From assembly GCA_937922005.1 (NCBI GenBank), contig CAKZWV010000060.1, positions 1 through 62,763 on the forward strand: a DNA stretch of 62,763 bases. The letters run 5' to 3'. The notes below the pieces were generated by a model. The model searched no databases and was not told where the DNA came from. It was given only the letters and a program-made list of their open reading frames with translations. Source of the DNA: an uncultured Clostridia bacterium. Lineage in GTDB: Bacteria; Bacillota; Clostridia; Saccharofermentanales; DTU023. This document shows, one piece after another, positions 3,785 through 61,413 of the stretch (the stretch's first letter is position 1; each line of letters opens with the position of its first letter). The translations under genes and the position numbers were made by a program.

Positions 3785-3943
3785 GCGGGCTCCGTTAGGA
3801 AATATACGCAGGATACGTAAGTATTCAGGGAGTATTTGTTAAAGATCGCAAGTTTCAAGGTGGAATGAGCGATCTTTGATTATAGGGGTCTAAGTTTAGG
3901 CCTGGACTCTGGGCCTCCCATAGCAAGAAAGAAGGATGATAGG

Positions 3944-5314
3944 ATGGGACTCGTAAAGGCTTTGGCCGGTGCTGTTTCTGGCAGTTTAGCGGATCAGTGG
4001 TTAGAGGTTATAGAACCGGATGATATGAACGAAGGGGTTGTTTTTACCTCGGGGGTTATGGTCCGGAAAAATGACAAACGTAGTAGTAATCGGAAGGGAA
4101 CCGTGGATGTTATTTCTAACGGTTCTGCGGTCCATGTGTATGAAAATCAGTGCCTGCTCTTAGTAGAGAATGGGGCTATCGTTGACGTGGCAGCTGAGCC
4201 GGGCGTTTATACGGTCAATAATAGTTCGGAACCGTCGGTGTTCTCGGGGCCCTTCGGGGATGCCTTGAAGGCGTCTTTCAATCGTTTTAAGTATGGCGGG
4301 GGGACGCCCAATAAGCAGCTAGCTTTCTTTGTGAACCTGCAAGAGATCAAGGGGATCAAATTTGGTACTCGGAATCCCCTCCAGTATTTCGATGAGTTTT
4401 ATAATGCGGAGCTCTTCCTCCGGGCCTTTGGAACTTACTCGATTCGTGTCAAGGATCCGATCCTCTTTTATAAGGAAGTGATTCCCAAGAGTGCGCAGAC
4501 GCTCCACATGGATGACCTCAATGAGCAGTATCTCAACGAGTTCCTGACGGCCTTGCAGACTTCAATCAGCCAGATGTCGGTCGACAACTTCCGGATTTCG
4601 CATATTCCATCGAAATCCTTAGAATTATCCAAGTATATGGCCGATGCCTTGGATGAGGATTGGCTAAAAAATAGGGGCTTTGAGGTGGCCGCCGTTGCTA
4701 TTGCTAGCATTAGCTATGATGATGAGTCGAAAGAACTCATTAATATGCGCAATAAAGGGGCCATGCTCCAAGATCCTTCGATACGAGAGGGTTTTGTCCA
4801 AGGATCTGTGGCTCGCGGCCTTGAAAATGCCGGTTCCAATCCCAATGGGGCCGGACAAGCCTTTATTGGCATGGGCCTTGGGATGGGGGCTGGTGGCAAC
4901 TTTATGCAAGCGGCTTCTTCTAGTAACCAAGCTCAGATGCAGCAGGGCTATGGCCAGCAAGGCTATCCCGGCCAGTATCCTCCTCCAGGCTATGCTCCGT
5001 ATCCGTATCCTTACCCCTATCCGCCTCAAGGAGGGTATCCGCCTCAGGGTGGTTATCCCCCTCAAGGTGGCCAAGGCTACCCGCCCCAAGGAGGCCAGGG
5101 TTATCCCCCTCAAGGTGGCCAAGGCTACCCGCCCCAAGGAGGCCAGGGCTATCCACCCCAAGGCGGCCAAGGCTATCCTCCCCAGGGTAGCTATCCTCAG
5201 CAGGGTGGCTATCCTCAGCAAGGAGGCTATCCACCTCAAGGCGGCTACCCTCCCCAAGATGGCTCCGCTCCTAATCCTTCCCAAGGTCAAGCTCCTGAGG
5301 ATCAGGGCAATTAG
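3944..5314 (+). CDS. SPFH/band-7 family protein with C-terminal GYPPQGG proline-rich tandem repeats
   Basis: The N-terminal ~330 aa resemble SPFH-domain proteins. The C-terminus has more than 12 tandem copies of G(Q)GYPPQG. Antisense and alternate-frame ORFs over the repeat are artefacts. Confidence 0.55.
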
Positions 5315-5625
5315 GAATAGGGCTAGGGCATTATCGCAGGCTTGTTAAGCCTGGTATCCCGTCCGGGTATTCTCTCCTGGGCGGGATTTTATCTGTATAA
5401 GGAAGCAGGCTTGTTAAGTCATAAATGCCCGAATGTGGGGGGACCGACCTCCTCGAGTAGCGGGAGCCACTTCTAGGCCTGACTGATAGTTGGCGCAAAA
5501 GCCTGAGATGACGGGATTTGGCTTGCTATTTGCCCTTATTTTTAGTACTCTGTAAGAGGCCCTTCGTGGAGTTTTTGCTCACGGGGGCTTCTTTCGCATG
5601 GAATATTTGAAGAAGGAGAAGGTGA

Positions 5626-6336
5626 ATGCAAGACTCCAATCTTTATTTGGTCTTTACGGCGACACAATTGATGACGGGCCATGTTATTCGCTTCTGCAGT
5701 GGTGAAAAGTATAGTCATGTGTCGGTCAGCTTGAATGCTGACCTATTTCCGGTTTTTTCATATGCCCGACTTTACTATTCTCCGGCTTTTTATGGGGGCT
5801 TTACGGAAGAGTCGATGTACCGCTATACCAGGGAGACCCCCCTCAAGGTCTGCTCCTTGCCTATTCCTGCGGGGGCGGCGGAGAAAATCCAGGAAGAATT
5901 TACCTGGCGACTGGAAAATCCGGGTGCCTATAATTTTGCATCTCTGCTGACCTATCCCTTTCATATGCAGGCCCAGCATGATGATTCTTTTACCTGCACG
6001 GAATTTGCCTATCATCTTTTGAAAACCTATGCGCCTGATTTAGATCTTAAGGATCCGCCCTTGGTCAAGGGGAAGCAGCGGGGGGCAGTGAGCCTCCAAC
6101 AGATGCAAGCCTTGGCCGACCCCTACCTGGTCTATGAGGGTACGGTGGGGGACTTTCTCGACCGCCGGGATGATCAGGTGGAGCAGGAGCGTTTAGAAGC
6201 ATGGGCCCGGGACCACTATTTGACCAAGATCACTTGGGGGGAGAAGTGGCAGAGGTGGAAAAAGACGGGAGGGATGATCTGGTCGGAGATGACCTACTTA
6301 ATGCAGTGGATGCGAGAAGGCCCCCAGGCCAGGTAA
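5626..6336 (+). CDS. hypothetical protein; possible permuted papain-like amidase (YiiX/YaeF-like, His-then-Cys order)
   Basis: 236-aa ORF. 'YSHVSVSL' (His) precedes 'FTCTEFAY' (Cys), the order seen in permuted NlpC/P60-like folds. RBS aggagaagg. Confidence 0.35.
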   Translation: MQDSNLYLVFTATQLMTGHVIRFCSGEKYSHVSVSLNADLFPVFSYARLYYSPAFYGGFTEESMYRYTRETPLKVCSLPIPAGAAEKIQEEFTWRLENPGAYNFASLLTYPFHMQAQHDDSFTCTEFAYHLLKTYAPDLDLKDPPLVKGKQRGAVSLQQMQALADPYLVYEGTVGDFLDRRDDQVEQERLEAWARDHYLTKITWGEKWQRWKKTGGMIWSEMTYLMQWMREGPQAR

Positions 6337-6519
6337 GCTCTGCTCGAAGGGAGCGAAGAGGGCGTATTTGTTCCCGAATGATGCTGATGCGGGAGTATTT
6401 GCAACTTATTTCAAGGAGTTTTTCTCGTGAATTTTTTCGTGGGAAATTGTTCGTGGAAATTTTTTAGTAATTTTTTTAGTGATACCTTTAGTATTTTTTC
6501 GTAGTAAGGAGATAGAAGA

Positions 6520-8382
6520 ATGAAGATCGACGATCAAAAAGGTCAAAAGAAGTCGTTTTATGTGACGACCCCTATTTATTATACTTCTGCCAAATTGGGT
6601 ATTGGCAACGCTTACACCACGCTTTTGGCGGATGTCTTTGCTAGGTGGCACCGGCTTATGGGGGAGGATGTCTTTTTCCTCACTGGTACCGACGAGCACG
6701 GGAAGAAGATCCAACAAAAGGCGGAAGAAATGGGAATGGAACCGAAGGCCTACGTGGATGGACAGATTGCCCCAATCAAGGACCTGTGGAAGCTTTTTTC
6801 TATCTCCTACGATCATTTTATCCGCACGACGGACCCGGAGCATGTCGAAGTAGTCAAAACGGTCTTTCAAAAGCTCTATGATCAAGGGGACATTTATCTG
6901 GGCAAGTATGAGGGCCTTTATTGCATTCCCTGCGAGACCTGGTTTACGGGGACAGAGGCTCCTGACGGGATATGTCCGGATTGTGGGCGGCCTCTGACAG
7001 AAATGAATGAGGAATGCTATTTCTTCCGCCTCTCTAAATATGCCGACCGCCTGATCGCTTATCTAGATGAGCATCCGGATTTTATCCTTCCAGCCTTCCG
7101 GGCCAATGAGTTAAAGAGAAATTTCCTGGAAAAAGGCCTCCAGGACCTGGCCATTTCCCGGTCCACTTTTGATTGGGGCATTCCCTTGCCCTTTGACGAA
7201 AAACACGTGGCATACGTCTGGGTCGATGCTCTGAGCAACTATCTGACGGCCATTGGCTACCGGGCCGATGGGAAGGCAGATCCCGAGGCCCAGGCTCAAT
7301 TCGAGAAATATTGGCCAGCCGACCTCCAACTAGTGGGGAAAGATATTATTCGCTTCCACGGGATTATTTGGCCCATTTTATTGATGGCTTTAGATTTGCC
7401 CATGCCCAAGCACCTCTTTGCCCATGGCTGGCTCTTAAATCGGGGGCGGAAAATGAGTAAATCCAAAGGGAATACCATGGATCCAACTTTACTGAGCCAA
7501 ATAGTCCCGATCGACGGGATCCGCTATTATGTCCTCAGTGCGATGAATGATGGCGATGATGGGGACTACGACACGGATGAGCTCTTGGATCGGTCGAATT
7601 CTTTCTTAGCCAATGATGTAGGGAACCTCCTCAGTCGGACGGTAGCTATGATCCGGCAGAATTTCCCCGAGGGCTTTTCTGCGAAGACACTCGACGAGTT
7701 CCATAACCTGGTGGCCGCGATGCCCGAGGATTTCTTGGCTAGCGGCCTAGATGTCCAGGTGGATGATGCTCTGGCGGAGGCTGATCCTGCGGTCCGGAAG
7801 GAAAATCGAGACCGCTTGATTTGGAATCTTTGTGCACGGATGCGGGCGGGCCAGGAGGCCATGCACAAGGCCATGGAGGCTTTCCATGTAGTGAAGTCTT
7901 TGGATGCCCTGGCGGCTTGGACGGGGGCAGCCAACCTCTTTATTGACCAGACGAAACCTTGGGCTCTAGCCAAGTCGGAAGATCCGGCAGACCGAGATTT
8001 CTTGGCCCTGGGTCTTTTAGCCCTCACCGAGACCATGTATCAGCTGGCCGTCTATATGGAGCCCTTTGTGCCGGGTCTGGCTTTGGCTTATCTCAAGGGC
8101 CTTGGGATGGAAGTGCCGGAGGGGCAGGCCTTCTATGAGAACTTTAGTTTTGCTAGCTGCAAGTCTTTGGACCACATCCAGGCCGATCGACCCTTTGAAG
8201 AGGTGGCGGCCCTCTATCCTCGCCTGAAGAAGGCGGAGACCCTCAAGGCTATTGAAGATCTAATTCAGAAGGCGGCCAAGGAGGAAGCGGCGAAGGAGAA
8301 GGCAGCAGCAAAGGATAAGGCAGCGAAAGAAAAGGCAGCAGCCAAGGATTCTGCGCCTGCCAAGGAGGGCAAGGATGAGTAA
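6520..8382 (+). CDS. metG: methionine--tRNA ligase
   Basis: Class I synthetase with a KMSKS motif (KMSKSKGN), a Zn-knuckle CPDCG and an N-terminal 'PIYYTS..GNAYT' motif. A K/A/E-rich C-terminal tail replaces the usual tRNA-binding domain. Confidence 0.93.
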   Translation: MKIDDQKGQKKSFYVTTPIYYTSAKLGIGNAYTTLLADVFARWHRLMGEDVFFLTGTDEHGKKIQQKAEEMGMEPKAYVDGQIAPIKDLWKLFSISYDHFIRTTDPEHVEVVKTVFQKLYDQGDIYLGKYEGLYCIPCETWFTGTEAPDGICPDCGRPLTEMNEECYFFRLSKYADRLIAYLDEHPDFILPAFRANELKRNFLEKGLQDLAISRSTFDWGIPLPFDEKHVAYVWVDALSNYLTAIGYRADGKADPEAQAQFEKYWPADLQLVGKDIIRFHGIIWPILLMALDLPMPKHLFAHGWLLNRGRKMSKSKGNTMDPTLLSQIVPIDGIRYYVLSAMNDGDDGDYDTDELLDRSNSFLANDVGNLLSRTVAMIRQNFPEGFSAKTLDEFHNLVAAMPEDFLASGLDVQVDDALAEADPAVRKENRDRLIWNLCARMRAGQEAMHKAMEAFHVVKSLDALAAWTGAANLFIDQTKPWALAKSEDPADRDFLALGLLALTETMYQLAVYMEPFVPGLALAYLKGLGMEVPEGQAFYENFSFASCKSLDHIQADRPFEEVAALYPRLKKAETLKAIEDLIQKAAKEEAAKEKAAAKDKAAKEKAAAKDSAPAKEGKDE

Positions 8383-9337: not shown

Positions 9338-9589
9338 GGATAAACCTAGGGAGGGAGCCGGATTCCCTACTTAATGTAGATGGGTCCCCTGGCCTTCCTG
9401 GTTATGGACTGTAGCTTGGAGCCTAGGCTCTGTGCCTGGCTTGTAAGTTTGCTGTTGCAGGTTCGTAAGGGAGAAATGACATAAAAAGAGTATAGTAGAG
9501 CAAGGATAAACATAAGTGAGAAGCGGCCTTGCCTTTTCTAGGAGGGAGTATTTGCCCTGTCTAAAAAGTGAGGGTCGAAAGGAGAAAGT

Positions 9590-10528
9590 ATGAAAGTTGT
9601 TTTTTTGGAAGATTTTGAGAAGACGAATGAGGAATTGAAAGAACTGCTGGCGGCTGCGGCACCGGAGAAGGACCTGGAGCCGGTTCTTTGGGAGGGAGAG
9701 GATTTTGTAGAAAAAGAAAAGAAAACTCTCGATGAGGCTGAAATCCTCGTGACAGGAAATACTCCCGTAACCGCTGAGATTATGGAGGCTATGCCGGCGC
9801 TGAAGTTTATTAGCGTGGCCTTTACTGGCCTGGACCATGTAGACTTAAAGAAGGTTGAAGAAAAAAACATCAAGGTTCAAAATTGTGCGGGCTATGCAAC
9901 GGAAGCTGTGGCAGAGCTCAATATTCTCTTTACCTTAGCCTTGCTTAGAAAACTGCGGACGAATTTTATTCTGGCCAGGAATTCAGAGACCAGACTCTTC
10001 CCAGGCCGAGAGCTTCGGGGGCGTAAGGTCGGTATAGTGGGGACAGGGGCCATTGGCCAACGGACAGCGGAGCTCTTAAAGGCTTTTGGAGCGGAGGTCC
10101 TGGGCTGGTCGAGGACCCACTATGACACTTTCCAAGGAACCTATGTCGATGACCTGGCAACCCTGGTTGAGGAAGCGCAGATTATTATCTTGGCCCTGCC
10201 TTTGAATGAAGAGACCGAGGGCATCATCAATAAAGAGATTTTTGCAAAGATGAAGCCTGATACCTATCTGGTGAATACGGCCCGGGGGAAGCTCGTCGAT
10301 GTGTCAGCTGTTCCGGACGCCATTTCCCATGATACCTTGGCGGGGATTGCTTCGGATGTCTTCCAGACTGAGCCGCCCCTTTCCAGAGAAGATGTCCTTG
10401 TGGGCTTAAGCACTAGCGCCTTGGATAAGGTCTTGATCACCCCCCATATTGGCTTTTTTACTGAAGAAGCCTTGGCGGCTAGGCTGGAGATGGCCATGGC
10501 CCATATTGGGGAGTATTTGAAAAAGTAG
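9590..10528 (+). CDS. D-isomer-specific 2-hydroxyacid dehydrogenase family protein (NAD-binding)
   Basis: GxGxxG 'GIVGTGAIGQRTAELL' and a catalytic-domain pattern '...ARG..VD...'. RBS aaaggagaaag. Confidence 0.8.
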   Translation: MKVVFLEDFEKTNEELKELLAAAAPEKDLEPVLWEGEDFVEKEKKTLDEAEILVTGNTPVTAEIMEAMPALKFISVAFTGLDHVDLKKVEEKNIKVQNCAGYATEAVAELNILFTLALLRKLRTNFILARNSETRLFPGRELRGRKVGIVGTGAIGQRTAELLKAFGAEVLGWSRTHYDTFQGTYVDDLATLVEEAQIIILALPLNEETEGIINKEIFAKMKPDTYLVNTARGKLVDVSAVPDAISHDTLAGIASDVFQTEPPLSREDVLVGLSTSALDKVLITPHIGFFTEEALAARLEMAMAHIGEYLKK

Positions 10529-10643
10529 GATAGGCGAAAGTGCCGGCCTTGATGAAAGCGCAGGCTTTCGCAAGAGCGCAAGAGCTCAAGGGCGCAAGGT
10601 CGCAAGGGCGCAAGGGCGGAGGAGAGGATGGCTAGGACAAGGA

Positions 10644-13127: not shown

Positions 13128-13170
13128 GGAGCGGGTAGATAGACCAAACGCCATGTTAAGAGCAGAAAAT

Positions 13171-13214: not shown

Positions 13215-13280
13215 AACCGGGCTATATCTAGTTTTTTGGGCCTGCTTTGCCTGTATTTACTAGATGACGGAAGCCCTGAC

Positions 13281-23173: not shown

Positions 23174-23902
23174 CTATGATACGAAAGTTTTCATCTTGGC
23201 ACAGCGGTGGCGTCGATACCAGTCGTCCCATTGTTCAAAAAAGATGACCAGGGAGACATAAGCTAGATCGACATAGAAGTAGAGTTTTTGATTGATGGCA
23301 AGCTGTGGAGGGAAACGCTTTACCATCATGTTTTCCAGCCATTGGCCATAGATAGGGACGATAAGAAAGACGGCGATAGCTAAACACATGAGGTAGAGGA
23401 ACAGAAGCAGCCCCTTGCCTGGCAGAGTATGCAAAAACCAGGTTTTCTCACTCTTCTGTTGCTGGAAAGAAAAGCCGGAATCTGGAACGACATCGACCCG
23501 AAGAAGCCATAAGGAGAAAAGACGTAATAGAAAAATGGGACGAATGACTCCAAAACAGGATAATAGGAGGGCACCGACTATGAATCTAGGGGCTATCAGT
23601 CGCAGCCAAAAGAGATATATAGGGGCACTAGTGGGGTAGGGGTTATCAGCGATGATGGTGATATTGATAAGGAGCCATATAAGAGCAAGAGCGATGACAC
23701 CGAGTTGAAGAAAACGCTTTATCCAGTTCGTCAACGTTGCATAGCGCTGAAAGGGTAGGAGGTCTTGCATCAACCTTGCCTGAAGGTCAGGATTTCCCGG
23801 AGCGAAGTTATGCTTCACAACCTGGCCACATTTGGGACAACAGATGTAGGTAGCCTCATGGGCGAAGAAGTAATATTGGCAAGCATTATTTTCGCAGATC
23901 AT
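23174..23902 (-). CDS. zinc-ribbon (CxxC...CxxC) polytopic membrane protein, paralog A
   Basis: N-terminal 'CENNAC...CCPKCG', 3-4 TM helices and a conserved C-terminus 'QLAINQKLYFYVDLAYVSLVIFFEQWDDWYRRHRCA'. Its termini are near-identical to 24248..24967 at the DNA level. Confidence 0.5.
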   Translation of the reverse strand: MICENNACQYYFFAHEATYICCPKCGQVVKHNFAPGNPDLQARLMQDLLPFQRYATLTNWIKRFLQLGVIALALIWLLINITIIADNPYPTSAPIYLFWLRLIAPRFIVGALLLSCFGVIRPIFLLRLFSLWLLRVDVVPDSGFSFQQQKSEKTWFLHTLPGKGLLLFLYLMCLAIAVFLIVPIYGQWLENMMVKRFPPQLAINQKLYFYVDLAYVSLVIFFEQWDDWYRRHRCAKMKTFVS

Positions 23903-24247: not shown

Positions 24248-24967
24248 TTATAACCTTCTAATCTGGGCACAGCGGTGGCGTCGATACCAGTCGTCCCATT
24301 GCTCAAAACAGATGACCAGGGAGACATAAGCTAGATCGACATAGAAGTAGAGTTTCTGATTGATGGCAAGCTGTGGATAGCGACTTGGTGGCAAGATCTT
24401 TTCGTTCCATTGCTGGTAAGAAGGTACACGATGCCGGATAATCCATATTAGGAAAAGTAGGTAAAGTACTAGGATGATGCTCTTTCCTGGTAAGGTATGC
24501 CAGAACCAGGCTTTTTCATTCTTTCTCTGTTGGAAGGAAAAACCGGAATCAGGAATAACATTGACCCCCAACGTGCGTATAGACCAGCGTTGTGCTATAG
24601 ACATGAGTGGAATGGCCCCAAAACAAACCAAGAGGAAAAAAGCCGTACAGTAACGTTGGACTCCCATCTTGACTACCAATGAGCCAATAGATTCATCGTT
24701 CATAGAAACATTCGAAAGCGCAATACTGTTGCATGCACCCTCTATCAAGGCAAGAAGGATCAGGCCCATCCAAACCGCACCTTTTGTTCGATTGCTCATC
24801 TTGAGATAGCGCTGAAAGGGTAGGAGTTCTTGCATCAATCTAGCCTGAAGGTCAGGATTCCCGGGAGCGAAATTATGCTTCACAATCTGGCCACATTTGG
24901 GACAGCAGATGTAGGTAACCTCATGGGCGAAGAAGTAATATTGGCAAGCATTATTTTCGCAGATCAT
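24248..24967 (-). CDS. zinc-ribbon (CxxC...CxxC) polytopic membrane protein, paralog B
   Basis: Same architecture as 23174..23902. The N-terminal 55 aa and C-terminal 35 aa are almost identical and the middle is diverged. A strong SD (aaaggagg) is present. Confidence 0.5.
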   Translation of the reverse strand: MICENNACQYYFFAHEVTYICCPKCGQIVKHNFAPGNPDLQARLMQELLPFQRYLKMSNRTKGAVWMGLILLALIEGACNSIALSNVSMNDESIGSLVVKMGVQRYCTAFFLLVCFGAIPLMSIAQRWSIRTLGVNVIPDSGFSFQQRKNEKAWFWHTLPGKSIILVLYLLFLIWIIRHRVPSYQQWNEKILPPSRYPQLAINQKLYFYVDLAYVSLVICFEQWDDWYRRHRCAQIRRL

Positions 24968-25293: not shown

Positions 25294-25953
25294 TTACTCA
25301 GCACTCCTGCCCTCTCTAGACTGGTAATCTTCGGCTATACGGTCCTTCCAAGAGCAATTCAGTTCCTTGCTGGATCGAAAAAAAGAAAGGGTGTCGGAGA
25401 GGACCTCATAGTTAAGCTTCATTCCTACATTATCAGGAAGGTAGTCGACAGCACAGCTTGCGTCAATGCCCACACTTGCTGCAGTATCTACGGCATCGAT
25501 ATTGGCCCCTAGAAAGAGGAATTCCCAGCCATATTTTTCCTTCTGGCGCTCGATCATCGTCTTCACCTGGCTACTGCTATAGCAGTGACTGGAGTTTTCC
25601 ATCCCATCCGTAGTAATGATAAAGAGGGTGCGTTCCGGGACATCCTCTTTTCTGGCATATTTATGAATATTTCCAATGTGATGGATGGCTTCGCCGATGG
25701 CGTCGAGCAAGGCGGTGCTCCCGCAGGCACAATAATCCTCGTCTGTCATGGGGTCGACCTTCTGAATAGGGATACGGTCGTGGATGACTGTACTTATGTT
25801 GTTAAAGAGAACGGTTGAGACCCAGGCCTCGCCCTTCTCTTTTTTCTGTTTAGAGATTAAGGAGTTGAACCCTCCGATGGTATCTTTTTCCAAGCCGCTC
25901 ATAGAGCCGCTACGATCTAGGATGAATACGATTTCTGTCAAGTTCTTTTTCAT
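25294..25953 (-). CDS. standalone vWA (von Willebrand factor A) domain protein, TerY-like
   Basis: MIDAS motif 'DRSGSM' (DxSxS) plus a downstream T..DG. The likely start is the internal ATG at 25953, with GGAGG 8 nt upstream. No signal peptide. Confidence 0.7.
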   Translation of the reverse strand: MKKNLTEIVFILDRSGSMSGLEKDTIGGFNSLISKQKKEKGEAWVSTVLFNNISTVIHDRIPIQKVDPMTDEDYCACGSTALLDAIGEAIHHIGNIHKYARKEDVPERTLFIITTDGMENSSHCYSSSQVKTMIERQKEKYGWEFLFLGANIDAVDTAASVGIDASCAVDYLPDNVGMKLNYEVLSDTLSFFRSSKELNCSWKDRIAEDYQSREGRSAE

Positions 25954-26155
25954 GTTGAATACCTCCGTATAGAGAAATAGGACTATTTGTTGGTGCACCT
26001 TACAGTCTTATTGTAGGTCGGTATTCACGTTCTTTGGTCGCATGGTGAGCGACATTCTCGTAGCTCGCTAGCCTCTGGGGCATGTGATTCGTTCGCCCCG
26101 ATTATGAAATAATTGCGGATGATTATGGCAAGCTCACATACAAACTAATTCACCC

Positions 26156-29516: not shown

Positions 29517-29770
29517 AGTAGAGTAACCTTCAGGGCGGGGTGTAAGTCCCCACCGGCGGTGTGAGCCCGCAAGCTAGGCCTCCAGGAAGAAAATAGATAG
29601 GTAAATTCTTCTTTTTCCTTTTGGAGTCTGGCCGATCTCTAGGACCAAGAGAGCCGACAGTGACAGTCTGGATGAAAGAAGGAAACTTATGGATGGCCTG
29701 TGTTCATCCCATGTCCCCTTGCCCGCCTGGTGTCCCCTGTCTGTTGCTCGACCAACGAGGGGCTTTTTTT
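29517..29770 (+). promoter_or_regulatory. FMN riboswitch (RFN element) with intrinsic-terminator expression platform
   Basis: 'AGGGCGGGGTGTAAGTCCCCACCGGCGGT...GCCGACAGTGACAGTCTGGATGAAAGAAGG' matches the RFN consensus. A GC hairpin plus TTTTTTT at ~29735-29770 precedes ribD. Confidence 0.85.
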
Positions 29771-29878: not shown

Positions 29879-31081
29879 TTGCCCACGAGGCTAGATACGA
29901 TGACTCTAGATGAACAATATATGCAAGAGGCCCTGGACCTGGCCCAGACTGCCCGCCGGGCCGTCCGTCCCAACCCGATGGTTGGGGCAATCCTTGTTAA
30001 GGATGGGAATATTTTGGCCAGGGGCTACCACAAAGGCCTGGGCCTGCCCCATGCCGAAATCGATGCTCTCCGCCAGGTGACCAAGGAGGAGGCAGAGGGA
30101 AGCACCCTCTATGTGACCCTGGAACCCTGCTGTCACCAGGGACGGACCCCGCCCTGCACCAAGGCCATTCAAGCGGCCAAGATCAAAAAGGTCGTCGTCG
30201 CCATGGAAGACCCTAATCCCAAGGTGGCGGGGAAGGGCCTGGCCATCCTCCAGGAAGCTGGTGTGGAAGTCGTTTCCGGAGTCCTCGAGGCAGAGGCTCG
30301 GAAAGTCAACGAAATTTTTATCCACTATATCAGCCAAGGCCTTCCCTATGTCGTAGCCAAATACGCCATGACCGCCGATGGCAAAATCGCAACGCATACC
30401 GGCGATTCTCAGTGGATTACGGGGGAAGAGGCCCGGGCCCACGTCCACAAGATACGGGCGGATCTCGCCGGAATTATGGTGGGCATTAACACCGTTCTTC
30501 ATGACGACCCCCTTTTGACCGCCCGCCTCCCCCAAGCCGTTCAGCCGGTCAGGATTATTTGTGACAGCCACCTCCGCCTGCCACTCACTTCCCAGCTGGC
30601 CCAAACAGCCCGGACCTACCGAACCATTGTGGCCTATGCTCCTGCTGCAAATACTCCCGCCTCTGTCGCAAGGCCCCAGGAGGCTCAGGCGTCGAAGGCG
30701 AGGGCCTTGGAGGCTCTAGGAGTGGAGCTCTTGCCCATTCCAGCCCGGGATAGGGAGTATTTGGATCTGAGGGCCCTCCTGAAGGCTTTGGCCGCTCGAG
30801 AGATCGATAGCCTTTTGGTGGAGGGAGGAGGTACCCTCCATGCCAGCCTTTTTGAGGAAAAGCTGGTGGACAAGGTCCTGGTTTATGTTGGCGGAAAACT
30901 CCTAGGGGGGAAAGAGGCACCTACTCCCCTGGAGGGGGTCGGTGTGGCCAAGATGAAGGATGCCATCCCCCTGACCCTCGAGGGCCTAGAATCCTGGGGA
31001 TCTGATGCCCTCTTAACCTACCGGGTGGAGGAGCAAGCGAAAGGAGGAGGGCCATGTTCACAGGCATCGTCGAAGAAGTAG
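29879..31081 (+). CDS. ribD: bifunctional riboflavin biosynthesis deaminase/reductase; carries ~30-aa in-frame insertion
   Basis: Deaminase motifs 'HAEIDAL' and 'PCCHQGRTPPC', plus a reductase domain. The insertion 'AANTPASVARPQEAQASKA' contains the dispersed motif GCAAATACTCCC. Confidence 0.9.
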   Translation: MPTRLDTMTLDEQYMQEALDLAQTARRAVRPNPMVGAILVKDGNILARGYHKGLGLPHAEIDALRQVTKEEAEGSTLYVTLEPCCHQGRTPPCTKAIQAAKIKKVVVAMEDPNPKVAGKGLAILQEAGVEVVSGVLEAEARKVNEIFIHYISQGLPYVVAKYAMTADGKIATHTGDSQWITGEEARAHVHKIRADLAGIMVGINTVLHDDPLLTARLPQAVQPVRIICDSHLRLPLTSQLAQTARTYRTIVAYAPAANTPASVARPQEAQASKARALEALGVELLPIPARDREYLDLRALLKALAAREIDSLLVEGGGTLHASLFEEKLVDKVLVYVGGKLLGGKEAPTPLEGVGVAKMKDAIPLTLEGLESWGSDALLTYRVEEQAKGGGPCSQASSKK

Positions 31082-31749
31082 GGATTATCCAAGGAATTCG
31101 ACCATCTGGGGCTGGTGGGGCTGCTCGCTTTACCATCCGTTGTCCAAAAATTCGCCCGGGGATTGCCCTGGGTGACAGTGTGGCGATCAATGGCCTGTGT
31201 CTGACGGCTGAGCATTTGGAACCGGAGGGCTTTTCAGCTGATGTGATGCCGGAGAGTGTCCGTCGGTCCAACCTAGGGACCCTCCAAGTGGGTTCCCGAG
31301 TCAATGCAGAGCGGGCCCTCCAGGCCGGGGGACGCTTGGGCGGCCATATTGTCACAGGGCACATTGATGGGACCGGCCAGCTCAAAAGCGTACGCCAAGA
31401 GGGCAACGCTCTCTGGGTTGAAATTACCTGTCCCTCGGCTCTGAGCCTATACCTGGCCCCCAAGGGCTCGATTGCCATTGACGGGGTGAGCCTTACCTTG
31501 GCCAAGGTCCTTCCAGACGGCTTTGCTGTATCCCTGATTCCTCATACGGTGGCTTCGACCACCTTGGCAACTCTGAATCCGGGAAGGACCTTTAACCTGG
31601 AATGCGACATCATAGGGAAATATGTCTACCGATATTTATGCCAGGGAGTATTTGCAGGAGGACCAGGAAGTCAGGAAGGGGCCTCGGCAGCAGCAAATAC
31701 TCCTAGACCCTTTGATGAAGGATTTTTACGAGAAAACGGGTTTCTATAA
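31054..31749 (+). CDS. ribE: riboflavin synthase alpha subunit; C-terminus carries palindromic-element insertion
   Basis: 'MFTGIVEEVG' start, two lumazine-binding repeats and a '...IGKYVYRYL' end motif, followed by extra residues encoded by the GGGAGTATTTGC...GCAAATACTCC element. Confidence 0.85.
   Translation: MFTGIVEEVGIIQGIRPSGAGGAARFTIRCPKIRPGIALGDSVAINGLCLTAEHLEPEGFSADVMPESVRRSNLGTLQVGSRVNAERALQAGGRLGGHIVTGHIDGTGQLKSVRQEGNALWVEITCPSALSLYLAPKGSIAIDGVSLTLAKVLPDGFAVSLIPHTVASTTLATLNPGRTFNLECDIIGKYVYRYLCQGVFAGGPGSQEGASAAANTPRPFDEGFLRENGFL
31643..31703. repeat. ~61-bp palindromic element (GGGAGTATTTGC-N38-GCAAATACTCC) inserted in-frame in the ribE 3' end
   Basis: Inverted 11/10-mer arms. The same 11-mer recurs at least 12 times in the window. 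Confidence 0.6.
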
Positions 31750-31879
31750 CCTTATAAATAAAGTTGACGATGATCGACACAACTCGAAATATGTCGGTTA
31801 CAAAGCGACCCTAAACCGGGCGAGAAAGGATATTATGGAAGAGAACAAAGATAGCTTGCAGACAAGCGAAGGAGCCAGC

Positions 31880-38571: not shown

Positions 38572-38617
38572 GTTAAGACCTAGGAAATTAGCGTTCACTC
38601 CCTTCCCCTATTTTGAG

Positions 38618-38676
38618 CAAATACTCCCGACCGCTTGTGCCGCACAGGAGTGCTGGATAGGGGGAGGGAGTATTTG
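38618..38676. repeat. inverted pair of the dispersed 11-mer (CAAATACTCCC ... GGGAGTATTTG) with flanking ATAGGGGGAGGG-like motif
   Basis: Intergenic; the arms are 38618-38628 and 38666-38676. Confidence 0.6.
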
Positions 38677-45011: not shown

Positions 45012-45112
45012 AGGATAAGGAGGAGAAAGCCTGACGCAGCCGCCTGGTTTTCTCCTCGAGCCTCCTTTCTTAGGGAGTATTTGCCAAGCCTTCGGAGAGA
45101 CTGGACCTCGGA

Positions 45113-45508
45113 TTAATTGTAGCTAATGCTGTCAATGACTTTCTTATCAAAGACCTTTTTGAAGAGGTCTGTTGAAAATTTGACGATTTGTGACTTGAAT
45201 GTCAAGGCAAGGGCTAGGAGAATAGCGATAATAATGACGATTTCTAAAGTTCCCATTCCCTGCTTATCCTTGGCCTTATCCCAAGCACAATGCGCTAGGG
45301 TGTCGGCCTTGACATAGAGCTGATTGAGTCTGTCTTGCAGCCTAGCAGTCAAGGAGAGTGGGTGAGGAGAAGCACCGAGGTGCCTAGAGGGACTTGGTTC
45401 ACCGAGCGTGGGCCCTCCGCTATCAGGGGCCGAGACCGGCCGAAAATGCTGGAATGTTTGTTGTATCATGGATCTATCCTTTCTTTGTTCGTGCCACAAG
45501 AAGCGCAT
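45113..45508 (-). CDS. Flp/Fap-type pilin-like protein; ORF has anomalously long N-terminal region
   Basis: 'KQG|MGTLEIVIIIAILLALALTF' gives a G/xxxxE class-III signal-like motif and a hydrophobic stretch. No in-frame start codon fits a normal ~20-aa leader. Confidence 0.45.
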   Translation of the reverse strand: MRFLWHEQRKDRSMIQQTFQHFRPVSAPDSGGPTLGEPSPSRHLGASPHPLSLTARLQDRLNQLYVKADTLAHCAWDKAKDKQGMGTLEIVIIIAILLALALTFKSQIVKFSTDLFKKVFDKKVIDSISYN

Positions 45509-45739
45509 CTGTATGTGCCATATGGGTACGTATATTTATGCCATCAAAGGTGCATTTTTTCGATCTCATCTGCTGTACAGACTACATAGGCCTCACCTCC
45601 CTTCTTGTCTTTCATCATTTTTTCTGATATTTGATCTTTTCTTCAAATATTCCCTATGTTAATTGGAAATGCTCAAAAATTATCTGTATTATTCCAGAAT
45701 ACTGCAGAATGCTCCCAGGCCCCCGCTTCCACCTTTTTC

Positions 45740-48726: not shown

Positions 48727-48809
48727 CGTACAAATACTCCCTCAAATCTTTTCTTCGATAGTTATCTAGAATTCTGCCCCCCAATATGCCCACCTCTTTT
48801 CCTCTAGAC

Positions 48810-50205: not shown

Positions 50206-50211
50206 CAAGAA

Positions 50212-53939: not shown

Positions 53940-53943
53940 GGCG

Positions 53944-54450
53944 ATGTGCTCCTCCTCGGATGAATCCCAGCAGGGAGTATTTGTTCCCCAAGAAGGCTCT
54001 TGGGGACTAACAGCCTGGCCTTTAAACGAAGAACCTTTATCGGTGCGGGAGGTCAATCAGCTACCTTTATCCTCTTTGGCCTGGGTTGGCGACGCCGTCT
54101 ATGAGATTCAGGTCCGCCTCTATCTTATCCGCCACCATCAAATCCGAACGGGGAAATTACATTTTATGGCCATTCCCTATGTCTCAGCCCCAGGTCAGGC
54201 AGCCATTTTGCGCCACTTGGAGGAGACTTACCCCCTATCTCCTGAAGAGCGGGCCATTGTACACAGGGGGGTCAATTTTCATACCGTAAGCAAGGCTAAA
54301 CACGCCAGCCAGGGAGAATATCGACGAGCTACGGCCTTCGAAATTTTGTTGGGCTGGCTTTACTGCGTTGGGCAGCATGATCGTCTGGAAGATATTATCA
54401 ATGTGGCCATTCGTTTTATCCAAGGAAAGTTGCGGGAGGAGCAGTCATGA
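53944..54450 (+). CDS. mrnC: mini-ribonuclease III
   Basis: 'LAWVGDAVYEIQVRLYLI' RNase III-like signature. Position between cysS and rlmB as in Bacillus. The true start is probably a few codons downstream of the ORF-track start. Confidence 0.75.
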   Translation: MCSSSDESQQGVFVPQEGSWGLTAWPLNEEPLSVREVNQLPLSSLAWVGDAVYEIQVRLYLIRHHQIRTGKLHFMAIPYVSAPGQAAILRHLEETYPLSPEERAIVHRGVNFHTVSKAKHASQGEYRRATAFEILLGWLYCVGQHDRLEDIINVAIRFIQGKLREEQS

Positions 54451-55706
54451 ATCAAGATTCAAATCGTAGGTCAGGACGTCGCCAAGGCGGTGAAGATCGT
54501 AGGATAGGCTACGGAGAAGGCCGGGCGGCTAAGCGCTCGCCAGCCTACAGGAAAGGTCGCTCAGCTAGGCGCTCCCAAGACCGCCCCTACGCAAGTGGCG
54601 GTCCATCCTTCAAAGCCCGCCCTTATTCGAAGGATAGCTCGGGTTTTAAGGGCCGTCCTTATTCAAAGGATCGCTTCGATTCTAAGGCTCGTCCTTATTC
54701 GAAGGATCACTCCGATTTTAAGGATCGTCCTTATTCAAAGAATCGCTCTGATTTTAAGGCCCGTCCTTATCCTGGTGACCGCAAAAATAATCCTGCCCCC
54801 CTTGATGAAGAAAATTTTGATTTGCTAGATGATTTGGCGGATGATTTGGTAGAAAATTCGGCATCTGCCCCGGAGGAGAGGGAGAATCTACGTTTTGAAG
54901 ATGAATTAGTATTTGGCCGCAATGCGGTACGCGAAGCTGTCCAGGCCGGTTTAAGCCTCAATAAGATTTATGTGGCTGAGGGGGAGGAGGGAGGCCTGGG
55001 TGGAGACCGTCGACTTAAGGATATTTATCAAGAAGCTGTAGAAAAAGGCTACTTGGTTCAATTGGTGCCCAAGGCCAAACTAGATCGGATGTGTGCGGGC
55101 CATCAAGGCAAACACCAAGGGATTGCCGCCATGGCCTCTCCGATTACCTATGCCGATCCCTACGATGTTTTGAAGACGGTCATCAGTGAAAAAAAACAAA
55201 TCACCGTCATTTTATTGGATCAGATTGAAGATTCTTATAATTTGGCGTCGATGATTCGCAGTGCCGAATGCGCAGGAGCAGACCTCATTGTTATGCCGGA
55301 ACGGAGGTCAGTAGCTGTCAACTACCTAGTGGCTCGGGAATCTGCCGGGGCCTTAGCTCACGTGCCTGTTGCCCGGGTCGGCAACCTTCGCCATTTCATG
55401 AAAACTTTGAAAGATCAAGGCTTTTGGATTTATGGCCTAGATATGGAAGGAACCGTCAACTATCGGCATGAAAAGTACCCGGACCGGGTGGCTATCGTGA
55501 CGGGGAATGAGGGGAAAGGCCTTCGTCCCAGTACCCTACAGGACTGTGATTTTATCCTTTCCATCCCCATGCAGGGAAAAATCAATTCCCTCAATGCCGC
55601 CGTGGCCACCGCCCTCGTCCTCTTTGAGATTGCTGGATCTCGGGCCGATGCCCGTCAAGCTCAGGGGGAAGGTACTCGCCCAGCCCAGGGGGTCGGTACC
55701 AACTAA
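54447..55706 (+). CDS. rlmB: 23S rRNA (guanosine-2'-O)-methyltransferase RlmB (SpoU/TrmH family) with N-terminal R/K-rich 'RPYSKD' tandem repeats
   Basis: SpoU motifs 'ILLDQIEDSYNLASMIRSAECAG' and 'ILSIPMQGKINSLNAAVA'. The N-terminal ~120 aa are repetitive. Confidence 0.8.
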   Translation: MNQDSNRRSGRRQGGEDRRIGYGEGRAAKRSPAYRKGRSARRSQDRPYASGGPSFKARPYSKDSSGFKGRPYSKDRFDSKARPYSKDHSDFKDRPYSKNRSDFKARPYPGDRKNNPAPLDEENFDLLDDLADDLVENSASAPEERENLRFEDELVFGRNAVREAVQAGLSLNKIYVAEGEEGGLGGDRRLKDIYQEAVEKGYLVQLVPKAKLDRMCAGHQGKHQGIAAMASPITYADPYDVLKTVISEKKQITVILLDQIEDSYNLASMIRSAECAGADLIVMPERRSVAVNYLVARESAGALAHVPVARVGNLRHFMKTLKDQGFWIYGLDMEGTVNYRHEKYPDRVAIVTGNEGKGLRPSTLQDCDFILSIPMQGKINSLNAAVATALVLFEIAGSRADARQAQGEGTRPAQGVGTN

Positions 55707-55849
55707 AACCTAGGAGCAGTGTCCTAACTTACCCAGGGTGGTGATGTCCGTCCTGCCCAGGGGAACGGCATCCCCTAAGTCAAGTCTGACACCTGTCCCT
55801 AGCAAGAAACAAGACCATTAGCGAACGAAAAGACAAGAAAGGAGTCCAT

Positions 55850-57229: not shown

Positions 57230-57280
57230 GCAGCCCTGCACCGCCCCAGCTCGCCCCACCCTTGCCCAAGCACCGCCCCG

Positions 57281-57314
57281 GCCCTGTCCCAGCCTCAGCC
57301 CTGTCCTAGCCTCA
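57281..57314. repeat. 2 x 17-bp tandem repeat GCCCTGTCC(C/T)AGCCTCA in a C-rich intergenic tract
   Basis: Seen directly in the sequence. Confidence 0.5.
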
Positions 57315-57352
57315 GATAGATACCTTTGGAATTTTAGAAAGAACCCAGTTAT

Positions 57353-59104: not shown

Positions 59105-59106
59105 GT

Positions 59107-61413
59107 ATGGCAAAGAAAAATAAAAAACAAACGAACCAAAGAGAAAATCAAAATCAGACCCTCGACAAGGCATCACCCCAGACGACGAATAGCAAAGGGC
59201 AAGCAAAGAAAAACAACCAAAGAGACGACCAAAATATAACCAGCAAATTAGTCCGTCACGGGCGTAGTGGCAAGGCCTTCACACGAGAGGCCATTGTCAG
59301 CATCTACCGAACCTACATGCGCCAAGACCTTTGGACGGTTCTGCTCGCAGTAGTTTTCATTGGCATTTCCCAATATGCTATGACTTATGGGACCTCCCTG
59401 CTCAAGCCGATCATCAATAGCACCATCGCACTCATGGGTAAGGAGGCTGGCGACCAGGCTACAGGAGAGGCCCTAGGCTTCCTTATCGGGAAGATGGCCC
59501 TCTTCATGCTGACCTCTGCTTTTCTTGACTTTTACACTGCCCGCACCATGAGCAAATTTTCCACCCGGGTTAGCTACCGGATGCGCGAGGGTCTCTTCAA
59601 ACAAATCCAGCAGATGCCCTTATCTTTTTACGACGAGTATAAGCCGGGTGAAGTGATGAGCTCTTTTACCAATGATATTTTTAACATCGCCGATGCCCTC
59701 CAAGAGCCCCTGCCCAATACCATTTCATCACTATTTTTCATCATCATTACGATCATCTTTATGCTCATCTTGAGCCCGATCATGACCCTTATCATGCTTT
59801 CGATGATGGGATTATTTGTTCTATTGGTGGTGCGACTTGGGAAGGCCAGTGCTAAAAACTTCAGCGCTTCTCAGGCTGGCTTGGCCGACCTGACAGCCTA
59901 TATCACGGAGTACCTCCAAGGGCAAAAGGTCATCAAAAACTTTAATCAAGAGGCTAAGATCCAGGAAGGGATGGACGGCTACATCAAACGTTATGCCAAA
60001 GAGCGCCACCAGGCTACGGCTGCCGCCACGATTATTTTCCCCATTTCCCGGATCATGACCATTCTTATCTTTGCGGCGATGGCTGTGATCGGGTCGATTT
60101 TTATCATCAAGCAGAAATTTGGCATGGATATCGGTACCCTGGTTACTACCCTCCAATACACCAACTCATTCACGGGGCCCGTCATGAACATGGCCGGCCA
60201 GATCCAGACTATCATCATGGCTCTGACCTCCATCCAACGAATTTACAACTACCTCATCCAGTCCCCTGAACAAGATTTAGGCCGTATTCTTGCCGTCCAA
60301 GCAAATACTCCCGCCCTCACCCCCGCTTCTCCTGATTTTTCTGCTTCCCCAGCATCGACCGACTTCACTGCAACCCCCTCCGCCCCCGCATCTCGCCTGA
60401 ACAAGGGCCGCCGCTACTGGATGATCAAAAAGACGGATTTGGAAGCTTTGGATCGAGATCTTAAAGAAAAAGAATCCAAGTCCGGTTTTGTCGTGACTCA
60501 GTGGGAGAAGCAGCGCCAGGAGCTCAACCAGCTCCGCCAGCTCTTCAAGGAAGCCGATGATCCTGCCTATGGGGATGATTTGCTCGCCCCACCAACGATC
60601 TTTAATCATCTTAGCCTAGAGAGCAAGATTGGCAATCAGGAGACCGTTGATGATCCCCAGTCCTATCTTTTTGCCCCTCTCGAAGGCAAGGTGGAGTTTC
60701 AGAATGTCAGTTTTGCCTATCAGGATGATGACTATGTACTCCGCAATCTCAGCTTTGTTGCCGAACCTGGTCGCCGGGTTGCCTTTGTTGGCAAAACTGG
60801 GTCCGGCAAAACAACTGTCGTTAAGCTCTTAGCCCGCTACTACGAGATATCTGAGGGGGAGATTTTCCTTGATGGGATCAATACCAAGCTGATTGCCAAG
60901 CCCAGCCTTCGGGGTCAAATTGGGATGGTTAGCCAAGAGCAACATATGTTCTCGGGTACCATCGCCGACAACATCGCCTATGGCCGTCTCAACGCTTCCC
61001 AGGAAGATATCGAAGCAGCCGCCAGCCTGGTCGGAGCGGACTATTTCATTCGCCGCCTCGATGATGGCTACCAGACCCATATCAGCTCTGATGAAAGCAT
61101 GGCCCTTTCCCGCGGACAAATGCAGCTCATCTCTATTGCCCGGGCCGACATTAAAAATCCCAGCATCCTCGTCCTTGACGAAGCAACCTCCTCGGTTGAC
61201 ACCCTCACCGAGCAAAAGATCGGCAAGGCCATGGACGAGATGATGAAGCAAAGGACCGTCATCGCCATTGCCCACCGGCTCAGTACCGTCATGGACAGCC
61301 ACGAAATCATCTACCTCGACGAAGGCCAAGTCTGTGAACGGGGCAACCACGACACCCTCATGGCCCTCCAAGGCAAATACTATCTCCTCAACCGTGGTGC
61401 TGTCCTTGAGTAA
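59107..61413 (+). CDS. ABC transporter ATP-binding/permease protein with ~120-aa in-frame insertion between TMD and NBD (heterodimer partner)
   Basis: Walker A 'GKTGSGKTT', signature 'LSRGQMQLI' and Walker B 'LVLDEA'. The insertion 'QANTPALTPASPDFS...' carries the dispersed motif GCAAATACTCCC. Confidence 0.8.
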   Translation: MAKKNKKQTNQRENQNQTLDKASPQTTNSKGQAKKNNQRDDQNITSKLVRHGRSGKAFTREAIVSIYRTYMRQDLWTVLLAVVFIGISQYAMTYGTSLLKPIINSTIALMGKEAGDQATGEALGFLIGKMALFMLTSAFLDFYTARTMSKFSTRVSYRMREGLFKQIQQMPLSFYDEYKPGEVMSSFTNDIFNIADALQEPLPNTISSLFFIIITIIFMLILSPIMTLIMLSMMGLFVLLVVRLGKASAKNFSASQAGLADLTAYITEYLQGQKVIKNFNQEAKIQEGMDGYIKRYAKERHQATAAATIIFPISRIMTILIFAAMAVIGSIFIIKQKFGMDIGTLVTTLQYTNSFTGPVMNMAGQIQTIIMALTSIQRIYNYLIQSPEQDLGRILAVQANTPALTPASPDFSASPASTDFTATPSAPASRLNKGRRYWMIKKTDLEALDRDLKEKESKSGFVVTQWEKQRQELNQLRQLFKEADDPAYGDDLLAPPTIFNHLSLESKIGNQETVDDPQSYLFAPLEGKVEFQNVSFAYQDDDYVLRNLSFVAEPGRRVAFVGKTGSGKTTVVKLLARYYEISEGEIFLDGINTKLIAKPSLRGQIGMVSQEQHMFSGTIADNIAYGRLNASQEDIEAAASLVGADYFIRRLDDGYQTHISSDESMALSRGQMQLISIARADIKNPSILVLDEATSSVDTLTEQKIGKAMDEMMKQRTVIAIAHRLSTVMDSHEIIYLDEGQVCERGNHDTLMALQGKYYLLNRGAVLE

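Follow-up and report, generated by a model that had tools for sequence, protein, structure and literature searches.

Genomic context of the window

We describe an 11-base word, GGGAGTATTTG, that recurs along a stretch of 62,763 bases (hereafter the window), which is the whole of contig CAKZWV010000060.1 of a metagenome-assembled genome (MAG) of an uncultured Clostridia bacterium (GenBank assembly GCA_937922005.1). The window encodes, among others, an SPFH-family protein, methionyl-tRNA synthetase (MetRS), a 2-hydroxyacid dehydrogenase, a ribD-ribE-ribBA-ribH operon, a Tad/Flp-type pilus locus and an ABC exporter, and a CRISPR (clustered regularly interspaced short palindromic repeats) array runs off its right end. 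Its gene order is Firmicute-like (metG-tatD; cysS-mini-RNase III [mrnC]-rlmB), and by this order the window looks origin-proximal, the replication origin itself lying outside it. The nearest named relatives of its MetRS come from Eubacteriales/Clostridia MAGs and are just 46-50% identical.

The homologs of its RibD form a tight group at 87-94% identity, from which the next step down is to 52%. Sister contigs were recovered through exact-protein look-ups; that for the open reading frame (ORF) at 1410-2495 returned no record. Six contigs (L001-L006) belong to the same species and are 99.2-100% identical to the window, hence uninformative. The comparisons below use three sister species: A (L056, L059, and L063; 84% DNA identity to the window), B (L058, L062, and L064; 86%), and C (L057; 94%).

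A frequent word restricted to one genus

An unbiased k-mer count ranks GGGAGTATTTG as the top 11-mer of the window, the only other repeated long words being those of the CRISPR array. It occurs 13 times exactly, nine times on the plus and four times on the minus strand (Table 1), against 0.03 copies expected from dinucleotide-preserving shuffles and 0.04 and 0.29 from order-3 and order-5 Markov models, respectively. Allowing up to one mismatch raises the count to 28, with 1.4 expected. The 9:4 strand ratio of the exact copies is not significant; the plus strand has a positive GC skew and carries the bulk of the genes. The two bases next to the word show some preference, and the flanks are random farther out: among the 13 exact copies, the preceding position is A in eight and C in four, and the following position is C in seven and T in four, so that the usual form is (A/C)GGGAGTATTTG(C/T).

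These counts bear out the over-representation that had been claimed in the initial annotation of the window. The positions listed there need some correction: the exact copies at 30753 (+) in ribD and 48731 (-) were missed, and several coordinates were off by one. One exact copy begins at 31644 rather than 31643, and near-matches start at 6360, 11327, 36747, and 40519 (-). The extended form GGGGGAGGGAGTATTTG, thought to be shared by several copies, was found at a single site (38660), and GGAGGGAGTATTTG at two.

The word is equally prominent in close relatives. It is again the most frequent 11-mer on each contig of the three sister species, with 11 exact copies in ~47 kb of one and 11 in ~50 kb of another, and its spacing of one per 4.3-4.5 kb there is close to the one per 4.8 kb of the window. 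It was absent in the two more distant relatives examined, whose RibD identity is ~52%. Thus, the word is a genus-level signature of a single clade of uncultured Clostridia/Eubacteriales. Extrapolated from the window and the sister contigs, its density would amount to several hundred copies per genome. Pattern scans of genome, Joint Genome Institute (JGI) metagenome, and viral collections did not find the genus of the window, the viral scan giving zero matches, and a full-text literature search with the 11-mer and its complement retrieved nothing beyond unrelated eukaryotic primer sequences.

Table 1. Exact copies of the word and selected imperfect copies in the window, with their state in sister species A, B, and C
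Position	Strand	Form	Location	Sister species
3828..3838	+	exact	intergenic; 44 nt past a stop codon, 106 nt before the SPFH-family gene	A: one substitution (GGGAGTATATG), neighboring hairpin retained
6360..6370	+	one mismatch (GGGCGTATTTG)	decaying; followed after 20 nt by the exact copy at 6391	more degraded still in A and B
6391..6401	+	exact	intergenic, upstream of metG	same in A and B; conserved island (GGGAGTATTTGCAA) within a spacer of substitutions and large indels
9544..9554	+	exact	36 nt before the ATG of the 2-hydroxyacid dehydrogenase gene	same in A; B: one substitution (GGGAGGATTTG)
10509..10519	+	exact	last six codons of the 2-hydroxyacid dehydrogenase gene; reads G-E-Y-L	same in A and B; sequence directly past the stop codon unalignable
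30648..30658	-	exact	ribD; reads A-N-T-P; edge of a length-variable lineage-specific loop	kept in B and C; A: lost by two substitutions (CAAATATTCCT), no indel
30753..30763	+	exact	ribD; reads R-E-Y-L; loop also present in other RibD proteins	same in A, B, and C
31644..31654	+	exact	ribE C-terminal linker; reads G-V-F	same in A, B, and C; adjoining downstream linker varies by indels
31694..31704	-	10/11 (AGGAGTATTTG)	ribE; faces 31644; reads A-N-T-P; degenerating partner	site differs in A and C
38618..38628	-	exact	47 nt past the HGD-D stop codon; 5' arm of a 59-bp inverted pair	same in A and C; B: one substitution
38666..38676	+	exact	3' arm of the 59-bp pair; precedes the Se/S-carrier gene by 99 nt	same in A, B, and C; sequence separating the arms diverges
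45073..45083	+	exact	in the gap that separates the flp-like pilin gene (45113-45508) from the FHA-domain gene; antisense to either gene	same in A and B despite ~77% local identity
45644..45654	-	one mismatch (GGGAATATTTG)	136 nt upstream of the flp-like gene	A: exact word at the orthologous site
48731..48741	-	exact	4 nt upstream of the TadA/CpaF-type ATPase gene ATG	A and B: same distance to the ATG, although intergenic length differs (~30 vs 83 nt)
53973..53983	+	exact	34 nt past the cysS stop; N-terminal extension of the mini-RNase III ORF; reads G-V-F	same in B
59808..59818	+	one mismatch (GGGATTATTTG)	membrane domain of the ABC gene	B: exact word through one substitution, Leu to Val in a membrane helix
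60302..60312	-	exact	ABC gene; reads A-N-T-P; start of a ~115-120-residue lineage-specific segment	same in B; low-complexity stretch directly after varies by indels

Placement in permissive DNA

The copies are not spread evenly over coding and noncoding sequence. Seven of the 13 exact copies are intergenic, whereas intergenic sequence makes up 14% of the window (P = 1e-3). The other six lie within ORFs, and all of these are in poorly conserved, tolerant parts of the proteins, namely termini, linkers, and lineage-specific loops: the last six codons of the dehydrogenase, the N-terminal extension of mini-RNase III, a surface loop of RibD (two copies), the linker of RibE, and the insertion of the ABC protein. 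The RibD loop has 10-45 residues more than its homologs, the C-terminal linker of RibE exceeds that of solved or related RibE proteins by about 15-22 residues, and the ABC exporter has about 115-120 added residues between its membrane and ATPase domains. These are the extra segments that the initial annotation had placed at the copies in RibD, RibE, and the ABC protein, and comparison with homologs confirms them.

The stretch from 10.6 to 30.6 kb (20 kb) holds no exact copy. Much of it is taken up by genes for proteins of a secreted or surface type (CAP, DUF2927, a large solute-binding-like protein, and hypothetical paralogs), and 10.5-18 kb is the fastest-diverging sampled part of the window, at about 73-82% identity. 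The sister orthologs of the sampled motif-free parts (10.6-18.5 and 24.9-30.6 kb) likewise have no exact copy. We considered whether the stretch is a recent island and rejected this, the sampled parts being syntenic in the sister species. The copies in the window thus sit at permissive positions of core regions and are rare in diversifying genes, as uptake-type words do.

Some copies form close inverted pairs. Two exact pairs of opposite strand fall within 120 nt of each other (simulated P = 0.009): 38618 (-)/38666 (+), with a 37-nt spacer, and 30648 (-)/30753 (+) in ribD, with a 94-nt spacer. In ribE, the copy at 31644 (+) faces the imperfect one at 31694 (-; 10/11) across 39 nt. The arm order is CAAATACTCCC...GGGAGTATTTG at 38.6 kb and in ribD and the opposite in ribE. 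The facing pairs at 31644/31694 and 38618/38666 had both been described earlier as hairpin-forming, and this holds for the latter, which folds strongly (-49 kcal/mol, z = -3.6 versus shuffled sequence); the ribE pair folds no better than shuffled sequence (z = -0.3), and single copies likewise no better.

Certain copies probably have local secondary roles, as a Shine-Dalgarno sequence (48731) or in a stable hairpin (38618/38666). The copy at 48731 lies 4 nt before the start codon of the TadA/CpaF-type ATPase gene in three species, and its GGGAG is probably the Shine-Dalgarno sequence there as well. The region 38593-38676, from HGD-D to the Se/S-carrier gene, offers two mutually exclusive pairings that are kept in three species: that of the inverted pair itself and that of ACTCCCTTCCCCTAT, upstream of the pair, with the complementary ATAGGGGGAGGGAGT, which overlaps the plus-strand copy. 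These alternative pairings may constitute an attenuator-like switch. A separate case is 9438-9590, a ~165-nt noncoding block upstream of the 2-hydroxyacid dehydrogenase gene that contains the copy at 9544 and is conserved nearly base for base in three species, while other spacers diverge. A subthreshold Rfam match to Clostridiales-2 covers 9481-9585 (E = 0.14), and the block is a candidate for an unannotated leader or riboswitch-like RNA. Since this leader is conserved as a whole, the conservation of the 9544 copy is not specific to the word.

Conservation at fixed positions and turnover by substitution

The orthologous positions indicate that the word is maintained. Of the exact copies, 9 of the 11 that could be compared in species A and 10 of the 12 in species B show no change, whereas just 23% (A) and 29% (B) of background 11-mers are fully conserved, with the same values within +-150 nt of the copies (P = 6e-5 and 1.4e-4, respectively). 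Expressed per base, by our count, the motif is ~98% identical against a background of 84-86%, and 82-83% of the copies are exactly conserved. The one-mismatch variants behave differently. They are conserved in 5 of 13 (A) and 6 of 14 (B) comparisons, which is indistinguishable from background, and the exact copies surpass them in each species (Fisher P = 0.04). Exact forms are therefore well conserved while one-mismatch forms turn over, which is the pattern of the uptake class of words. Orientation makes little difference: the copies antisense to genes (45073, 60302, 38618, and 30648) are conserved in 5 of 7 comparisons and the sense copies in 14 of 16. This argues for a reading at the level of DNA, or at any rate for one that is not confined to mRNA.

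The most telling result on mobility is the way in which copies come and go. Across the 23 orthologous comparisons with A and B, there is not one case of presence or absence of a copy as a block. The four losses (3828 and 30648 in A; 9544 and 38618 in B) each involve one or two substitutions. Of the three exact copies found only in a sister species, two are a single substitution away from a one-mismatch variant of the window (45644 in A and 59808 in B); at 45644, exact and one-mismatch forms evidently interconvert by one transition. The third, at position 2498 of contig L063 (window 1374, GAGAAAATTTG), differs at three positions, without an indel. Occurrence in both orientations, the lack of a conserved flanking element, and spread by substitution or recombination and not by transposition are again features of the uptake class. 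We consider it likely that GGGAGTATTTG is a functional, nonmobile word that acts at the level of DNA.

The same comparisons reveal exchange between the species. Identity of the window to species A reaches 96-100% at 27.5-29.7 kb and falls to 84-88% beyond that; to species B it is 93-97% identical across about 30-38 kb; and elsewhere in the window both stand at 75-90%. The nearest relative thus flips from A to B at ~30 kb, which is inexplicable by selective constraint and points to kilobase-scale homologous recombination between lineages. The route of exchange would be transformation, transduction, or conjugation.

The word is probably not part of a mobile element

The initial annotation favored a short palindromic element that inserts, often in frame, into genes, in the manner of Rickettsia palindromic elements (RPEs), transposable elements of the miniature inverted-repeat type (MITEs), or repetitive extragenic palindromes (REPs), with the 11-mer as terminal repeat. 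The observations behind this proposal are sound. Three reverse copies, one each in ribD, ribE, and the ABC gene, read A-N-T-P, as stated there, and border lineage-specific extra segments; the extra linker of RibE is roughly bounded by two facing copies; and in-frame copies in housekeeping genes where relatives lack residues are a feature of RPEs and MITEs. The same 11-mer also lies inside the conserved 20-mer arms of an unrelated palindromic repeat of Rhodobacterales (see below).

However, comparison of the copies with their flanks revealed neither a longer element nor target-site duplications: similarity among copies ends after 11-12 bases. The word lacks dyad symmetry and is not palindromic, and the majority of copies stand alone. 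A hairpin has the same arm order as its reverse complement, so that pairs in both arm orders do not represent one palindromic element. The ribD pair was rejected as the boundaries of an insertion, as the invariant residues K266, L270, and G274 of RibD are located between the two copies. The coding copies at 30753, 10509, and 59808 (in species B) involve no block insertion; the loop at 30753, for instance, is just ~1 residue longer than in distant homologs. Length differences beside the coding copies trace to slippage in stretches of low-complexity direct repeats; in ribD, for example, a deletion lies between copies of CCCAGGAGGC. Thus, we see no full-length consensus, no target-site duplication, and no polymorphism of filled and empty sites, and the four losses and two of the three gains took one or two substitutions. 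This reading is largely refuted, and we regard it as very improbable.

Other repeat classes fit no better. REPs are extragenic, imperfect palindromes of 20-40 nt; like them and the mosaic elements that they build (bacterial interspersed mosaic elements, BIMEs), the word is short, abundant, partly intergenic, and sometimes in inverted pairs, but it is mostly solitary and nonpalindromic and is also found within genes. HIP1 (GCGATCGC) of cyanobacteria is a hyper-abundant short word that is kept at orthologous positions, is linked to methyltransferase sites, and has a debated function. HIP1 is, however, an 8-bp palindrome, whereas the word described here is asymmetric, 11-12 bp long, and without evident methylation-site structure. 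RPEs, for their part, form families whose ~150-bp members follow a common consensus and encode a conserved peptide (PMC10969869), whereas here the conserved unit is 11-12 bases without palindrome, target duplication, or insertion polymorphism.

A scan of a 596-Gb genome collection for CAAATACTCCC-N20-50-GGGAGTATTTG returned 49 loci, of which ~43 belong to one palindromic repeat of Rhodobacterales/Paracoccaceae and six are unrelated hairpins; a scan of JGI metagenomes for the opposite arm order returned the same repeat and singleton hairpins. In this repeat, the 11-mer is part of a conserved 20-mer (GCCTCCGGCGGGAGTATTTG) in a stem that extends through variable complementary flanks to ~30 bp in total. 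At these loci the 11-mer is not otherwise enriched, with two to three copies per 8-kb locus. Given this, and the very large number of hairpins in 596 Gb, the sharing of the 11-mer is probably a coincidence. As an observation in its own right, the repeat (loci L007-L055 and L065-L082, in Rhodobacterales/Paracoccaceae genomes and metagenome contigs) is abundant and compound, its 20-mer arms being flanked by variable, mutually complementary sequence as if set inside host hairpins. Probably this is a REP/MITE-like family that has been described little or not at all, and it has no relation to the word of the Clostridia.

A candidate DNA uptake word and its alternatives

The word is abundant, confined to one clade, nonmobile, conserved irrespective of orientation, and permissively placed, and it belongs to lineages that recombine. 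This combination suggests, tentatively, a function in DNA uptake or self-recognition of the uptake-sequence type, to which we assign a probability of roughly one in three. As with the uptake sequences of Neisseriaceae and Pasteurellaceae, a receptor in the DNA-uptake machinery would recognize GGGAGTATTTG specifically, in double-stranded form, and conspecific fragments that carry it would be preferentially taken up and recombined into the chromosome. Such biased uptake and recombination, through molecular drive and/or selection, would restore exact copies and accumulate them wherever the sequence tolerates them. The word itself is not mobile as a unit; copies are created and removed by point substitution, and exact ones are held at fixed positions. 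A more specific version is somewhat more doubtful: that this is the first such DNA-uptake system outside the Proteobacteria, in which a deep-branching genus of Clostridia tags its own DNA with AGGGAGTATTTG, and the tag is read by a receptor of a pilus or of the competence apparatus; the Tad/Flp-type pilus, whose genes lie next to comF, is one possibility. The initial annotation had named an uptake-sequence-like motif or a protein-binding site as its fallback, and the evidence now favors that fallback. It had also pointed to ComFC and a Tad-type pilus. The Tad/Flp-type locus is present and itself carries copies of the word; the ComF-family gene, which lies next to metK, gives a match below the NCBIfam cut-off. 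The presence of the two in the window is suggestive only.

Several points weigh against an uptake function. The link to competence is indirect, with a sub-cut-off ComF-family match and a pilus that is of the Tad type and not of the ComG/type IVa type. To our knowledge, uptake sequences are experimentally established in just two proteobacterial families, which makes the prior probability low. The density of one copy per ~4.8 kb is 2-10 times below published counts for the DNA uptake sequences (DUS) of Neisseriaceae (PMC3630211). The inverted pairs have spacers of 37-94 nt and no T-tract, and no copy of the word coincides with a predicted terminator in the 1-12-kb region scanned. The conserved leader at 9544 and the ribosome-binding-site overlap at 48731 mean that local RNA or regulatory constraint could explain part of the conservation. 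That nine of the 13 copies are in sense orientation and on the plus strand is not significant, yet it is compatible with polarity. Finally, the organism is uncultured, the argument is built on sequence comparison, and the data comprise ~63 kb from this genome, to which the sister species add ~100 kb of orthologous sequence.

The chief alternative has nothing to do with uptake: the word would be bound by an abundant sequence-specific DNA-binding protein, for instance one that organizes the chromosome or associates with the nucleoid, or a regulator of very broad range. Such a protein would bind as a monomer, whatever the orientation of the word, and each site would be kept by ordinary purifying selection. 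This agrees with an asymmetric word in both orientations at fixed, conserved positions in and between genes, with the intergenic enrichment, and with the seemingly origin-proximal location of the window, as sites for chromosome organization often cluster in such regions. Yet one site per ~4.8 kb implies several hundred per genome, and the specific systems known to us (parS, NBS, and matS) have far fewer. Furthermore, the 13 exact copies against about 14 one-mismatch copies above chance indicate a stricter match than most operators have, the copies keep no fixed distance to starts or promoters, and their restriction within genes to places where the protein tolerates them is better explained by accumulation under drive. 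We therefore judge this alternative unlikely, though it is the closest contender. Inspection by eye against known motifs also led us to reject DnaA boxes, parS, NBS, and dif, as well as sigma-54 and sigma-H elements, the Bacteroides -7 box, the RfaH ops element, and T7-like promoters, all of which misfit in spacing or bases; no second promoter element was found at a fixed distance from the copies.

A role at the RNA level is distinctly less probable than a protein-binding site. Here GGGAG would serve as a Shine-Dalgarno or anti-anti-Shine-Dalgarno sequence, as a target of a small RNA or RNA-binding protein, or in processing or terminator hairpins. The sense orientation of nine of the 13 copies, the position of the 48731 copy 4 nt before an ATG in three species, the stable 38618/38666 fold with its alternative pairing, and the conserved leader around 9544 would all be accounted for. 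Against it stand the similar conservation of antisense copies, start-codon distances that range from 4 to >100 nt, and copies inside ORFs, at C-termini and in loops. Neither single copies nor the ribE pair fold better than shuffles; Rfam 15 at threshold finds only an FMN (flavin mononucleotide) riboswitch and a tRNA in the window, neither overlapping a copy; and none of the promoters or terminators predicted at 1-12 kb coincides with one. Reading GGGAG plus TTG as the Shine-Dalgarno sequence and start of mini-ORFs was likewise rejected, for a spacing of 3 nt is too short and the frames that follow lack conservation.

A polar signal for recombination or segregation, co-oriented with replication and read by AddAB or FtsK/SpoIIIE (of the Chi or KOPS/SRS type, i.e., FtsK-orienting polar sequences and SpoIIIE recognition sequences), is as improbable as a mobile element. 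Its appeal lies in the frequency of one per ~5 kb, which is similar to that of Chi in Escherichia coli, and in the nine of 13 copies on the strand with positive GC skew and most genes. The Chi and KOPS/SRS words known to us, however, have 5-8 bases and not 11-12, the strand ratio is not significant, and such signals are characterized neither by enrichment between genes nor by close inverted pairs or conservation of individual sites.

Comparison with known uptake sequences

The uptake interpretation can be set against the DUS of Neisseriaceae and the uptake signal sequences (USS) of Pasteurellaceae, the latter defined as highly conserved repeated words of 9-11 nt (PMC1852404). The DUS (GCCGTCTGAA and its dialects) resemble the word described here in being 10-12-bp, asymmetric, present in both orientations, hugely over-represented, and flanked by one or two semiconserved bases. 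They are also enriched between genes, placed in permissive parts of core genes, scarce in diversifying genes, and found in close inverted pairs (PMC2397512, PMC3630211); frequent close inverted repeats and permissive positions are common to DUS and USS (PMC2397512; PMC1852404). The parallel extends to conservation. DUS are ~97% identical against a background of ~85%, 71% of them are exactly conserved across genomes, and single-mismatch DUS-1 elements are in mutation-selection balance (PMC2397512). Both words thus combine 97-98% conservation of exact copies, against ~85%, with turnover of one-mismatch forms in recombining lineages.

There are clear differences as well. The sequences are unrelated: all DUS dialects have a CTG core, and direct comparison shows that GGGAGTATTTG has neither this core of the GCCGTCTGAA type nor a core of the AAGTGCGGT type (sequences from PMC1852404 and PMC3630211). 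The hosts of DUS are beta-proteobacterial, whereas the word belongs to an uncultured, Gram-positive-type lineage of Clostridia, and its density is about 2-10 times lower than the about 900-5900 DUS per 2-2.5-Mb genome (PMC3630211). Its inverted pairs are long-spaced and not terminator-like, and neither a ComP-type receptor nor a type IVa pilus was seen in the window. The USS (AAGTGCGGT) share with the word the character of a short conserved repeat that occurs in genes, in particular frames and tolerant segments, and in opposite-strand pairs (PMC1852404, PMC2397512). They differ in sequence, host, and machinery, and the word has a lower density and no AT-rich extended flanks in its 13 copies. 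In its behavior the word therefore resembles DUS and USS while lying outside both sequence families, which makes it a candidate uptake-type word in a new phylum-level setting.

If this is true, an uptake-type word in an unrelated, Gram-positive-type lineage with another pilus would be an independent replicate of a phenomenon whose origin is debated between selection for safe "sex" and selfish molecular drive. It would point to a new kind of DNA receptor and to sequence-biased transformation as an independently evolved and more widespread trait, and scans of MAGs for conserved over-represented words could then reveal hidden competence systems. If the word is instead the site of an abundant DNA-binding protein, it would be a new genus-wide cis-element with several hundred copies. 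In practical terms, it is a sharp marker for assigning contigs to this genus.

Other features of the window

From 62355 on, the CRISPR array occupies the rest of the window; it has six or more regular 32-nt repeats (ATTTCAATCCACGCACCCGCAAGGGGTGCGAC) at a period of 66-67 nt; degenerate repeat copies precede it at 61989 and 62077 (whole region, 61989-62724), and no cas genes were found in the window. A tRNA gene lies at 61708-61781. Two adjacent paralogs at 23174-23902 and 24248-24967 have no Pfam match and share stretches of DNA that are 83-86% identical; a third gene of similar size (25294-25998) is nearby.

In-frame low-complexity tandem repeats are common in the proteins of this organism generally. 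Examples are the GYPPQGGQ units of the SPFH-family protein (5051-5263), the KEKAAA-type units at the C-terminus of MetRS (8272-8337), and the 36-nt units that encode the N-terminal extension of RlmB (54576-54791). RibD has QEAQA units (30660-30700), the length of which varies between sister species by slippage between the CCCAGGAGGC direct repeats.

Within the rib operon, the long ORF at 31622-33193 overcalls ribBA: a conserved Shine-Dalgarno sequence and ATG are found at 31835, and the sister gene calls have 438-491 residues. Between ribE and ribBA, the spacer varies greatly and contains tandem repeats that differ by species. An FMN riboswitch of canonical form (81.7 bits) at 29522-29687, upstream of ribD-ribE-ribBA-ribH, confirms the assignment of this operon.

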